Origin: Candidatus Iainarchaeum sp.
Lineage (GTDB): Archaea; Iainarchaeota; Iainarchaeia; Iainarchaeales; JAAZKV01
Direction of reading: 5' to 3'
Assembly: GCA_026397015.1 (NCBI GenBank)
Contig: JAPLVR010000001.1
Location: 21,745-85,744 of the forward strand
Length of the DNA stretch: 64,000 bases
The translations under genes and the position numbers were made by a program. How positions within the stretch are numbered: position 1 is the stretch's first letter; every line of letters begins with the position of its first letter. This document shows positions 18,158 to 20,092 of this stretch, one piece after another. The notes under the pieces are model-generated. The model was given only the letters and a program-made list of their open reading frames with translations. It was not told the origin of the DNA and made no database searches.

Positions 18158-18191
18158 CAGCCTTTTTTTCGAAAAAAGGCTGGCGAAAAAA
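18158..18191 (+). repeat. Hairpin element copy 1: CAGCC-T7-CG-A6-GGCTG-GCGAAAAAA, ~70 nt upstream of 16S
   Basis: Read directly. It is near-identical to the copy at 20059-20092. Confidence 0.8.
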
Positions 18192-18261
18192 TTACGGAGA
18201 AATCCGTGAAAAGTTTGCCGGCATTTTTTGGGAGGATGGCTAATTATATGAGTAATGTGAA

Positions 18262-19745
18262 ATTCCAGCTGATCCTGCTGGCGGAAACTGCTATCGAAAT
18301 TCCACTCAGACATGCAAGTCGTAAATTCACGGTAAGTGAGTTTGGCGCACGGCTCAGCAACGCGTGGCCAACCTACCCTCTAGAATTGTTAATCCCGGGA
18401 AACTGGGGCTAATGCAATATGTGCGAACTATACTGGAATGTTTGTTCGTTAAAAGGAAGCAGCCTAATACCGGCTGTGTTCGCTTGAGGATGGGGCTGCG
18501 TCGCATTAGGTTGTTGGCGGGGTAACTGCCCACCAAGCCGATGATGCGTACGGGCCTTGAGAGAGGTAGCCCGGAGAAGGGAACTGAGATAAGGTCCCTA
18601 GCCCTACGGGGTGCAGCAGTCAGGAAACCTTTACACTGCACGAAAGTGCGATAGGGGGATTTCGAGTGCTCTCACTGAGAGCTTTTGCTAAGTCTAAATC
18701 GCTTGGCGAATAAATGGGGGGCAATATACGTGCCAGCCGCCGCGGTAATACGTAACCCATAAGTGGTTTCCACTCATATTGGGCTTAAAACACCTGTAGC
18801 CCGTTTTTCAAGTCTTTGGTGAAATCAGCCGACTCAATCGGCTGAATGGCTAAAGATACTGTTAAACTTGGGGAAGGAAGACGTTAGGAGAATTTTCGGG
18901 GTAGCGGTGAAATGCTATGATGCCGAAAAGACTACCAGTAGCGAAGGCGCCTAACGAGTACTATCCCGACGGTGAGAGATGAAAGCTGGGGGAGCGACCA
19001 GGATTAGATACCCTGTTAGTCCCAGCTGTAAACGATGTGGACTATGTGTTCTGTGCCCCAAGCGGGTATGGAGCGCCGGAGTGAAAACGTTAAGTCCACT
19101 GCCTGGGGAGTACGCTCGCAAGGGTGAAACTTAATGGAATTGGCGGGGACTCACTACAAGGGGTGGATGCTGCGGTTTAATTGGATACAACGCCAGAAAA
19201 TCTTACCGGAGACGACAGCAGGATGATGGACAGTCTGAAGGGCTTTCCTGACACGCTGAGAGGTCCTGTATGGCCACTTCCAGCTCGTACTATGAAGCGT
19301 CCTGTTAACTCAGGCAACGGGCGAGACCCACATCATTAGTTGCAACTCCTCTGCGAGGGGGCACTCTAATGGGACTGCGGGAGTAATCTCGAGGAAGGCG
19401 TGGGCTACAGTAGGTCTGTATGAGCCGAATTTTCCGGGCAACACGCGACATACAATGGTTAAGACAATGGGCTGCTAACCCGAAAGGGGGCGCTAATCTC
19501 CTAAACTTAACCTCAGTTCGGATTGAGGGCTGTAACTCGCCCTCATGAAGTTGGAATCCCCAGTAATCGCGTGTCATTATCGCGCGGTGAATAAGTCCCT
19601 GAGTCTTGCACACACCGCCCATCAAGCCAGCTGAGTGGAGTTTGGATGAATTCACGCCTTTCGGTGTGAATGATTCTATATTTCGCGAAGCGGGCTAAGT
19701 TGTAACAAGGTGTCCGTAGGGGAACCTGCGGACGGATCACCTCCT
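18262..19745 (+). rRNA. rrs: 16S rRNA (archaeal, divergent)
   Basis: 5' ATTCCAGCTGATCCTGCTGGCGG; GTGCCAGCCGCCGCGGTAATAC; GGATTAGATACCC; 3' GGATCACCTCCT. 1484 nt. Confidence 0.95.
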
Positions 19746-19983
19746 ATAAAAAAAATAAAAAGACAACATTGCTTCTTTACACTAACCAACTTATATTTTT
19801 TTACCTGCGAAGCGGGTGAAGAAATTGATTGGATTCAATGGTTTGACCAGCGGTGCAGGCGCGGTTTTCTTGCATTGCAGGAAAGCCGTTGCGAAGTCCT
19901 GAGCGCGGAGAGTTGAATTTGCGAAGCTCGCTTTGTCGAGCAGCAGCGAAGACAATGCTTTTCGCGAACCTTAACAAGGTTCA

Positions 19984-20056
19984 GGGCCTGTAGCTCAGTT
20001 GGTAGAGCGTCCGCCTTGCACGCGGAAGGTCGAGGGTTCGATTCCCCCCGGGTCCA
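19984..20056 (+). tRNA. tRNA-Ala(UGC)
   Basis: Full cloverleaf with G3:U70, anticodon loop CTTGCAC and T loop TTCGATT. No encoded CCA. Confidence 0.95.
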
Positions 20057-20058
20057 CT

Positions 20059-20092
20059 CAGCCTTTTTTCGAAAAAAAGGCTGGCGAAAAAA
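20059..20092 (+). repeat. Hairpin element copy 2, 2 nt after the tRNA-Ala 3' end
   Basis: CAGCCTTTTTTCGAAAAAAAGGCTGGCGAAAAAA. Confidence 0.8.

Follow-up and report, generated by a model that had tools for sequence, protein, structure and literature searches.

The 64-kb window analysed here (64,000 nucleotides of contig JAPLVR010000001.1 from Candidatus Iainarchaeum sp., positions 21,745 to 85,744; G+C content 41.8%) carries a small hairpin element with an oligo-T arm and an oligo-A arm twice at its rRNA locus, in the 16S rRNA leader (copy 1) and behind the tRNA-Ala gene (copy 2). The question raised by this locus is what such a pair does there. The original prediction described the two copies as a direct repeat flanking a 16S-tRNA-Ala unit. 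It offered several readings, among them an oligo-T terminator splitting the rRNA locus into two transcription units, a processing module, and a small palindromic repeat associated with stable-RNA genes. Our analysis shows that copies 1 and 2 are not a matched boundary pair; copy 2 belongs to an inverted pair placed round tRNA-Ala, of which it forms the 3′ half. In this lineage, which the NCBI names of three window proteins assign to a Candidatus Diapherotrites (Iainarchaeota, DPANN) genome assembled from metagenomes, the sites occupied by the element are transcribed but discarded, or structurally tolerant, parts of RNAs, namely the leaders, trailers and introns of tRNAs, the 16S leader and distal P12 in RNase P RNA. 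Among the readings offered, the palindromic repeat fits best. We consider it an even call that the family consists of short proliferating palindromic repeats, resembling repetitive extragenic palindromic (REP) sequences or very small MITEs (miniature transposable elements with inverted repeats), which are tolerated in processed spacers. The processing module is still a live rival.

Two hairpin copies and their relatives in the window

Copy 1 (CAGCCTTTTTTTCGAAAAAAGGCTGGCGAAAAAA) and copy 2 (CAGCCTTTTTTCGAAAAAAAGGCTGGCGAAAAAA) were found as originally described, both on the plus strand. The exact pattern CAGCC-T(6-7)-CG-A(6-7)-GGCTG-GCGAAAAAA matched twice in the window and never in 100 shuffles, and a looser family pattern gave five matches in the window and none in shuffled sequence. 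With our covariance model, R1, both copies score 41.5 bits (E = 4e-9). The GCGAAAAAA tails are in direct orientation, while the 25 nt of the copy 1 hairpin (T7/A6), read in reverse complement, match those of copy 2 (T6/A7) exactly. Long-range pairing of the two copies as a processing stem was considered (25 of 25 positions are complementary and RNAcofold pairs them) and rejected. Such pairing would be pseudoknotted with the real 16S stem; the analogous direct pair at the tRNA-Pro of L095 lacks this kind of complementarity (L numbers denote the loci compared); and slippage of the T- and A-runs by ±1 accounts for the pattern. The real 16S stem is an 11-bp perfect complement, homologous in position to the 13-18 bp stems of the relatives L179, L165 and L216. 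It encloses copy 1, the end of which lies 70 nt before the 16S start. The 23S gene has a separate processing stem (20814-20831 with 23836-23853).

A census of the window with regular expressions and R1 gave eight significant copies in 64 kb, all with E ≤ 2e-4, the next match being at E = 0.05. All eight lie in or beside stable-RNA genes, and none of the 50 protein-gene 3′ flanks of the window carries the element. The sites at 33682, 55322 and 60196-60599, suggested earlier as relatives, indeed correspond to one degenerate copy, the RNase P copy and four copies round an unannotated tRNA-Arg, respectively. The copy at 33682 falls below significance with the covariance model, and it is doubtful that the hairpin in the tRNA-Glu intron belongs to the family. 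No Rfam family covers the element at gathering threshold in the window or in 20 loci. CRISPR repeats were ruled out by the irregular copy spacings (62, 54, about 250, 1901 nt and more) and the mixed orientations.

Anatomy and covariation of the hairpin

The element consists of a 3-5 bp G+C clamp (CRGCC/GGCYG) round a T-run paired with an A-run, followed 3′ by a single-stranded A-rich tail, GCGAAAA, for a total of 26-34 nt. Covariation was studied in 37 gapless archaeal copies, a 30-nt subset of 62 copies. Among these copies, taken from the matches listed, stem pair 2-20, whose 5′ side had been left free by the search pattern, is A-U in 22, G-C in 11, G-U in 1 and unpaired in 3. Overall, 98.5% of the paired cells are filled by a pair, a level reached by none of 500 shuffles. 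The same tail accompanies different clamps (CAACC/GGTTG, GAACC/GGTTC, CAGGC/GCCTG, AAACC/GGTTT), and the clamp-to-clamp distance ranges from 8 to 18 nt. The compensatory changes and the variable arm lengths show that the element is a true hairpin. The range of clamp distances, which a hairpin tolerates, argues against a fixed-spacing duplex site for a dimeric DNA-binding protein. Comparison of G.U with A.C mismatches, as a test of the folding strand, gave two cases each way.

Three known motifs were compared with this anatomy and discarded. A bulge-helix-bulge motif has two 3-nt bulges and a 4-bp helix, whereas the stems here are continuous, 98.5% paired and free of bulges. In a bacterial-type intrinsic terminator, a U-tract would follow the hairpin; here GCGAAAAAA follows it, and the T-tract of the other strand precedes the hairpin. 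For a kink-turn (K-turn) bound by L7Ae, in which tandem sheared G.A pairs come after a 3-nt bulge, inspection of the tail GGCGAAAA showed AA and no G.A pairs. Kt-7 (GGCGAAGAACC) has GA at the position compared with the tail AA.

Hairpins bracket tRNA genes with a fixed polarity

Copies that abut tRNA genes have their tails pointing outward in 16 of 16 cases. Upstream copies are inverted (6/6), giving TTTTCGC-hairpin, 0-2 nt and then the tRNA; downstream copies are forward (10/10), giving the tRNA, 1-5 nt and then hairpin-GCGAAAA. These 16 copies are partly non-independent, four of them coming from one orthologous tRNA-Arg locus. In the window, the inverted copy at 19957-19982 and copy 2 form the bracket of tRNA-Ala, and tRNA-Arg is bracketed alike; tRNA-Glu is without flanking hairpins. 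The flanking of a 16S-tRNA-Ala unit is therefore right as to the positions and wrong as to the unit, because copy 2 and the inverted copy (E = 2e-4) bracket tRNA-Ala alone. As a consequence of the tails-outward rule, the leader tail UUUUCGC and the trailer tail GCGAAAA are complementary. RNAfold indeed pairs the tail of the copy at 19957-19982 with that of copy 2, and the leader hairpin, the tRNA and the trailer hairpin are predicted to form a four-way junction closed by the tail helix.

Among the matches listed, 16 of the 53 exact archaeal copies lie at most 60 nt from, or inside, a tRNA found by ARAGORN, as compared to 4% of random positions, and 47 of the 53 are intergenic. None of 75 bacterial copies is near or in a tRNA. 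The element also opens the introns of tRNA-Leu (CAA) directly after the anticodon in L065 and L073, and two tandem copies make up most of a tRNA intron in L067; the introns of these three loci are visibly built from it. An antisense copy lies in an intron of L009. Tandem arrays follow tRNAs in L065, L076 and L095. At seven of the loci listed, the element forms inverted pairs, tail to tail, with another type of clamp (NAACC...GGTTN; tail ATCAAAA or ACGAAAA). In some other genomes, the element is found 3-80 nt past the stop codons of protein genes.

Other hairpins were seen at similar sites. A second family with the same layout, (A)ACC-T5-C-T4...A4-G-A5-G.TTG with the tail ACNAAAAAGAAAAGTG, lies directly 3′ of tRNA ends (tRNA-Ala, tRNA-Leu, tRNA-Ser and tRNA-Lys) and in the 16S/tRNA-Ala spacer in L165, L216/L129, L009 and L113. 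Small GC-clamped hairpins with GCGAAGC or GCAAAGC centres (for instance CCCGCGAAGCGGG and GCATCCGCAAAGCGGATGC) are a recurrent second type of module. They fill tRNA leaders, the 16S/tRNA-Ala spacer and the tRNA-Arg intron, at 6498-6540, 19806-19960, 60291-60300 and 60400-60440 as well as in the leaders of L120-L122. Some of them, such as GCGAAGA, look like the bulged strand of a K-turn.

Table 1. Copies of the hairpin element and stable-RNA features of the window
Feature	Position	Strand	Description
Copy 1	18158-18191	+	Hairpin CAGCC-T7-CG-A6-GGCTG (18158-18182) and tail GCGAAAAAA (18183-18191); 16S leader, inside the processing stem
Copy 2	20059-20092	+	Hairpin CAGCC-T6-CG-A7-GGCTG and tail GCGAAAAAA; 2 nt past the tRNA-Ala discriminator; 3′ bracket
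Degenerate inverted copy	19957-19982	-	On the + strand TTTTCGC-GAACC-TT-AAC-AA-GGTTC, AG, then tRNA-Ala; 24.1 bits, E = 1.9e-4
Element-like segment in RNase P RNA	55322-55352	+	AAACC-T5-CG-A5-GGTTT-GCGAAAAC; 29.3 bits
tRNA-Arg trailer copy 1	60313-60344	-	Begins 2 nt past the tRNA 3′ end; 37.6 bits
tRNA-Arg trailer copy 2	60259-60291	-	In tandem array; 41.7 bits
tRNA-Arg trailer copy 3	60197-60226	-	About 70 nt upstream of the argS start codon; 41.5 bits
Copy inverted relative to tRNA-Arg	60569-60600	+	CAGC-T6-GGG-A6-GCTG-GCAAAAAAC; abuts the tRNA 5′ end; 28.6 bits; kept in L121 and L122
Degenerate interrupted copy	33682-33766	+	CAGCC-T7-CG-A7-G, about 50 nt with two GC-rich hairpins, then GCGAAAAAAA tail; intergenic between protein genes
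Hairpin in tRNA-Glu intron	6610-6632	+	TTTC-T6-GCG-A6-GAAA; weak clamp, no tail; inside the 107-nt intron
16S rRNA	18262-19745	+	Rfam
16S processing stem, 5′ strand	18096-18106	+	GTTGGTTAGTG, pairs with CACTAACCAAC at 19780-19790
tRNA-Ala(TGC)	19984-20057	+	Rfam and ARAGORN; element copies on both sides
23S rRNA	20858-23812	+	Rfam/ARAGORN survey of RNA genes
RNase P RNA	55207-55476	+	Rfam/ARAGORN survey of RNA genes
tRNA-Glu(TTC)	6560-6739	+	107-nt intron
tRNA-Arg(TCT)	60346-60568	-	148-nt intron; recovered by ARAGORN only with introns allowed; orthologues known

Comparison of orthologous loci

The tRNA-Arg/argS locus of the window was compared with three loci, L120-L122, chosen through homologues of the window arginyl-tRNA synthetase (ArgRS) that are 87, 82 and 78% identical to it; the gene order is that of the window. 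Recognisable leader copies number one in the window, none in L120 (one degenerate), three in L121 and two in L122; trailer copies number three, one, two and two in the same order. The orientation of the element differs among the loci, both orientations being found. In all four orthologues, a hairpin abuts each end of the tRNA, the 5′ one being degenerate in L120. The clamps of these hairpins differ in a compensatory manner (CAGC/GCTG, GGCC/GGCC, AGCC/GGCT, GGC/GCC). The intron measures 148 nt in the window and 108, 96 and 0 nt in L120, L121 and L122, which indicates rapid gain, loss or expansion. In L121, a degenerate duplicate of the tRNA-Arg 3′ half lies beside an inverted element pair (about 850-880). 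A degenerate 5′ fragment of a tRNA beside an element was also observed in L028 (1900-1990). These duplicates of tRNA ends resemble the traces that insertion or recombination at tRNA genes would leave. On nine tRNAs of three more distant relatives (L245-L247, ArgRS about 65% identical), such hairpins are missing and the trailers are plain and T-rich; the nine include the tRNA-Ala of a 16S-tRNA-Ala-23S operon.

To compare the 16S leader, metagenomes were scanned for the 16S 5′ end. Of the 120 loci obtained, L233 was discarded as a false match in a G+C-rich coding region. Eleven loci, representing about ten related lineages, share the leader modules of the window, a U-rich-loop hairpin followed by GATGTTGG, and a CAATTYCATTAAGTG box. 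None of these eleven leaders contains the element, and the distance from the CAATTYCATTAAGTG box to the 16S gene is 10-65 nt in the relatives and 120 nt in the window. Because the related leaders are without the element at this place, copy 1 looks, by sequence comparison, like a lineage-specific insertion in a variable segment of the leader. R1 was also run on 97 loci chosen by 16S and detected the family in only one, L179, where it lies after tRNA-Ala, about 250 nt upstream of 23S, in a contiguous 16S-tRNA-Ala-23S operon. In L165 and L216, a hairpin of the second family (T-arm/A-arm, A-rich tail) follows tRNA-Ala, and in L145 no hairpin does. The site just past tRNA-Ala is thus occupied repeatedly by T-arm/A-arm hairpins. 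Absence from the rRNA and tRNA flanks of relatives had been put forward as evidence against a link with stable-RNA genes; such absence holds for the copy in the 16S leader and is false for the tRNA flanks.

Further observations concern the same operons. Directly before the 16S processing-stem strand, the window leader contains a conserved module (18068-18100), ATGAGCACC-AAG-T7-GGTGTGATGTTGG, which is a U-rich-loop hairpin with a covarying stem and is found in the leaders of L164, L172, L201, L165, L179, L145, L216 and L211. Ahead of the 23S stem, at 20700-20735, lies a comparable hairpin, CCATTCCGAG-T6-CGGGATGG. The 800-nt spacer between tRNA-Ala and 23S holds a 124-codon open reading frame (ORF; 20206-20580, plus strand) with a Shine-Dalgarno-like GGTG; a search among 5.8 billion proteins returned no homologue besides itself. 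L145 also has a small ORF, in its 16S/tRNA-Ala spacer, and its 16S gene measures 2240 nt, a length that suggests an insertion or an intron. The homologue search with the proteins flanking the window rRNA locus and with the 124-codon ORF gave orphans only, so that these genes are unusable for synteny.

The element-like segment of RNase P RNA

The segment in RNase P RNA maps to helix P12. The structure favoured by RNAfold has a P12 of 19 bp, with the palindromic segment as its 5′ strand and GCGA as a GNRA loop. The P12 of L120 keeps this arrangement with a GCAA loop, its 5′ strand being one A shorter and its 3′ strand one U shorter. These co-varying strand lengths favour a long P12 helix over a local hairpin, and the segment is most likely the 5′ strand of P12 plus its GCGA loop. 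One strand of P12 would not be expected to contain a 20-nt palindrome; it is therefore plausible that an old insertion was incorporated into the helix. Two T-runs, T5 and T7, occur in the RNase P RNA. In the gene table of L001, a PemK-type toxin adjoins the RNase P RNA.

Distribution in DPANN archaea and Clostridia

Searching species-representative genomes with a 23-base pattern gave at least 118 loci. Among the matches listed, about 49 are DPANN-type archaeal loci, the hosts being Iainarchaeum (including the complete genome GW2011_AR10) and metagenome-assembled genomes (MAGs) of Woese-, Pace-, Micr-, Undin- and Altiarchaeota. About 70 of the matches listed come from gut Clostridia (L003, L005, L007, L010-L012, L016-L024 and others). 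Viral contigs gave two matches only (L243 and L244; phage or prophage), both of the bacterial type. The clostridial copies, seen in Oscillospiraceae, Butyricicoccus including B. pullicaecorum DSM 23266, Anaerotruncus and others, are multi-copy and intergenic. Their core, GCCTTTTGAAAAAGGC(T/C)GGCGAAAA, is that of the archaeal element, with the same CA..TG / CG..CG covariation, and their unit is longer, with one or two variable GC hairpins, ACCCCGC, the core and CTTT. The likeness may stem from chance convergence, a common mechanism or transfer. Full-text literature searches returned no relevant report on the sequence or the concept of the element, and no description of an archaeal family that occupies the rRNA leader, RNase P and the leaders, trailers and introns of tRNAs and has a strict tails-outward polarity round tRNAs.

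Probable transcription through the element

The proposal that the element is an oligo-T terminator splitting the rRNA locus was not supported. Copy 1 lies between the 5′ strand of the processing stem and the 16S gene, so that its T7 run must be transcribed. Further copies lie in RNase P RNA, leaders and introns, and transcription probably runs through these as well. T-runs are also common in coding sequences. In 47 long ORFs of the window, sense-strand runs of at least six T number 63 as compared to 30 expected from codon shuffles, and runs of at least seven T number 22 as compared to 10. A-runs show the same two-fold excess, which over all long ORFs extends to A- and T-runs of 5-7 nt, and T-runs are thus not avoided on the sense strand. 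In L245-L247, small samples gave runs of at least seven T at 0.66 of expectation and A-runs at 1.4; oligo-T termination may be relaxed in the lineage of the window, although these samples are small. In addition, all four tRNA-Arg orthologues have two to four T5-T6 runs per leader between the conserved TATA/initiation region and the tRNA.

T5-T8 runs do start 1-7 nt after tRNA-Ala and tRNA-Arg, as those of oligo-T terminators would. A placement of the element only at the ends of transcription units is however not what we found, given the copies in the 16S leader, in RNase P RNA and in tRNA leaders, and in introns in the relatives. The ends of the window protein genes show ordinary long T-rich stretches or nothing recognisable, the element being at none; a plain terminator, which the original prediction had expected to follow most genes, would not be distributed in this way. 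Overall, the data argue against the element being a simple oligo-T terminator.

Origin and possible role of the element

A proliferating palindromic repeat would best account for several features at once: the distribution is patchy, copy number and orientation vary between orthologues, copies are arranged in tandem, inverted or nested, some introns are built from the element, and the 16S leader holds a lineage-specific copy. New copies would arise by dispersal together with local tandem or inverted duplication, and would persist where RNA processing removes them. The precise abutment, the polarity rule and the retention in orthologues suggest in addition either targeted insertion at tRNA gene ends or a secondary function. 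Since a tRNA gene begins and ends with sequences that are inverted repeats, one target at the DNA level would produce the observed symmetry. The most concrete candidate for a function is the predicted leader-trailer helix of the complementary tails. This helix may have been co-opted as a clamp that keeps flanking A/U-rich sequence away from tRNA folding and processing.

Several observations weigh against this reading. The 40 window ORFs gave no Pfam match to a transposase, integrase or HUH enzyme, and the flanks of the copies show no consistent direct repeat that would indicate a target-site duplication; the case for mobility thus comes from the distribution. Hairpins at both ends of tRNA-Arg are retained with compensatory changes in three to four of four orthologues, and a hairpin with an A-rich tail, from two sequence families, lies past tRNA-Ala in four of five loci (window, L179, L165 and L216, but not L145). 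Such retention looks like selection for a positional function, although concerted evolution could mimic it. Abutment within 0-2 nt of mature tRNA ends is likewise more precise than passive tolerance predicts. Finally, the copies found past stop codons in other genomes indicate that the link to stable RNAs is a property of the lineage and not of the family.

The same features lend themselves to a dedicated module for RNA processing or folding, in which the hairpins bracket the mature RNA and the tail helix would make the pre-tRNA available to tRNase Z and RNase P, protect it, or insulate its fold from A/U-rich flanks, the copy in P12 being part of the same system. We regard this as possible though clearly less probable than a repeat. 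It would explain why abutting hairpins are kept on both sides of tRNA-Arg with compensatory clamp changes, why the site past tRNA-Ala is filled from two families, and why all 16 abutting copies have tails outward. The predicted tail-tail helix and the conservation of an element-like P12 in a relative are consistent with it. However, sister lineages do without the hairpins on nine tRNAs, tRNA-Glu of the window is not flanked, copy number and orientation vary freely outside the abutting copies, the intron copy of L009 is antisense, and other genomes have copies after protein genes. Moreover, complementarity of the tails is automatic for inverted copies of one element and therefore is not independent evidence, and for the RNase P segment a long P12 helix, of which it forms one strand, is the better explanation. 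An improbable alternative is a bidirectional terminator or insulator that offers oligo-T on both strands, the hairpin side having one T tract and the tail side two (TTTTTTCGCC-AGCC-TTTTTT), and so isolates stable-RNA genes, copy 2 ending the 16S-tRNA-Ala transcript. The T-run starts 1-5 nt past tRNA 3′ ends, where related lineages have plain T-rich trailers, and forward copies lie 3-5 nt past stop codons in other genomes. The hairpin side faces gene ends in 24 cases as compared to 16, and the tail side gene starts in 26 as compared to 16. An orphan ORF and 800 nt separate tRNA-Ala from 23S, which has its own processing stem. Against this stand the read-through that copies in introns and in RNase P RNA, copy 1 and the copies in the leaders of tRNA-Ala and tRNA-Arg would all require; the T5-T6 runs upstream of tRNA-Arg in four orthologues; the roughly two-fold enrichment of sense-strand T6-7 runs, which parallels that of A-runs; the absence from the 50 protein-gene ends; and the copy of L179, which lies inside a compact 16S-tRNA-Ala-23S operon. 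The A's, instead of U's, that follow the hairpin exclude the bacterial type too.

A promoter or DNA-binding site, with the T/A core as TATA box and GCGAAA as B recognition element, giving matched promoters to 16S and 23S, is very improbable. The T5-A7 core does resemble archaeal TATA boxes, a copy lies about 30 nt upstream of the argS ATG in L122, and forward copies lie 36-48 nt upstream of four tRNAs. Copy 1, however, is downstream of the processing-stem strand, itself necessarily transcribed, and the copies within introns, RNase P RNA and leaders count against a promoter, as do the covarying clamps and variable arm lengths, which indicate a hairpin and not a duplex site. The recognisable promoters of window protein genes have canonical TTTAAATA or TATATAAG boxes, and the distance from the element to the downstream gene is not fixed. 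We give an outside chance to two bolder readings taken together: a bracket system specific to a DPANN lineage, or a mobile hairpin shared across domains with the clostridial repeat. In the former, inverted copies would clamp the pre-tRNA into the four-way junction through their complementary tails, and the P12 module would meet the brackets through U-run/A-run pairing or a shared binding protein and so position substrates. In the latter, an enzyme would insert the hairpin with fixed polarity beside highly transcribed genes for structured RNAs.

In these DPANN genomes, tRNA introns and spacers are unusually long and variable, for which a proliferating repeat offers an explanation. There is also a consequence for the annotation of tRNA and rRNA genes in MAGs. 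Default ARAGORN overlooks two of the three tRNAs of the window, tRNA-Arg(TCT) and tRNA-Glu(TTC), which have very long introns. The abundance of T-runs inside the genes of this genome is a caution against reading every archaeal T-run as a terminator. If the bracket is functional, it would be a new accessory element of tRNA maturation.

Other features of the window

Another repeat of 30-50 nt, AATCCTYCCAAA.TCGC.TTTT.AAAAAGCAGTC.CG..., occurs in three intergenic copies of the 26-39 kb segment (31338-31368, 33622-33671 and 36340-36389), one of which adjoins the degenerate element at 33682. The same segment holds a gene cluster resembling a defence or mobile island (about 26500-39300), with a type IIG-like methylase/restriction fusion (26587-29523), an HNH nuclease (31425-31970), DUF488, a PD-(D/E)XK/Cas4-like nuclease (34305-35477), an NYN domain protein (35586-36278), an RNase_H_2-like protein and DUF3800. 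At 46333-46425, in an intergenic region, A/T-rich units of about 17-19 nt (ATTTTTTAACCTTAAATTT...) form a short tandem array.

Comparison with known systems

Like archaeal oligo-T terminators, the element puts a run of 5-8 T, on the non-template strand, directly behind tRNA genes. Unlike them, it is a hairpin with an A-run and a conserved tail, it occurs in leaders, introns and RNase P RNA, and it does not follow the protein genes of the window. Its tails, as predicted, resemble archaeal pre-rRNA and pre-tRNA processing stems in that complementary flanks can enclose a mature RNA; it differs from bulge-helix-bulge stems by the lack of 3-nt bulges and of a 4-bp central helix, and the real 16S and 23S stems are separate sequences. 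MITEs have terminal inverted repeats and a target-site duplication and derive from an autonomous insertion sequence. The whole of the element is one palindrome; its copies were seen without a consistent flanking direct repeat, and no parent insertion sequence was seen.

Short hairpin repeats that colonise RNA genes and spacers include Rickettsia palindromic elements, the GC clusters of yeast mitochondria and palindromic repeats of organelles. Such selfish palindromes gather where they are tolerated, in spacers, introns and those helices of structural RNA genes that are variable or peripheral, much as the element does, and differ from it in sequence family, hosts and size. Bracketing of tRNAs with a fixed polarity is not known from them.

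Hairpin repeats of the REP type, including bacterial interspersed mosaic elements (BIMEs) and REP doublets forming hairpins (REPINs), are textbook bacterial features. The element departs from them by its archaeal host, its pure T-run/A-run core, and its conserved flank, which is 3′ (GCGAAAA) instead of a 5′ GTAG. A cognate gene for a REP-associated tyrosine transposase (RAYT), typically between inverted REP sequences, belongs to this class; neither a RAYT nor another Y1 transposase was matched in the 40 window ORFs. In this lineage, the element occupies tRNA and rRNA leaders, trailers and introns with abutting copies strictly tails-outward. In other respects, the likeness is close. REP sequences, BIMEs and REPINs, as the element, are near-perfect palindromes of 20-40 nt with a short conserved asymmetric flank and many extragenic copies, which are single, in tandem or in inverted pairs and often lie directly past gene 3′ ends. 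Compensatory changes maintain the stem in both, and related genomes differ in copy number. With eight copies in 64 kb, in both orientations, in tandem arrays and in tail-to-tail pairs, the element has the repeat character of this class.

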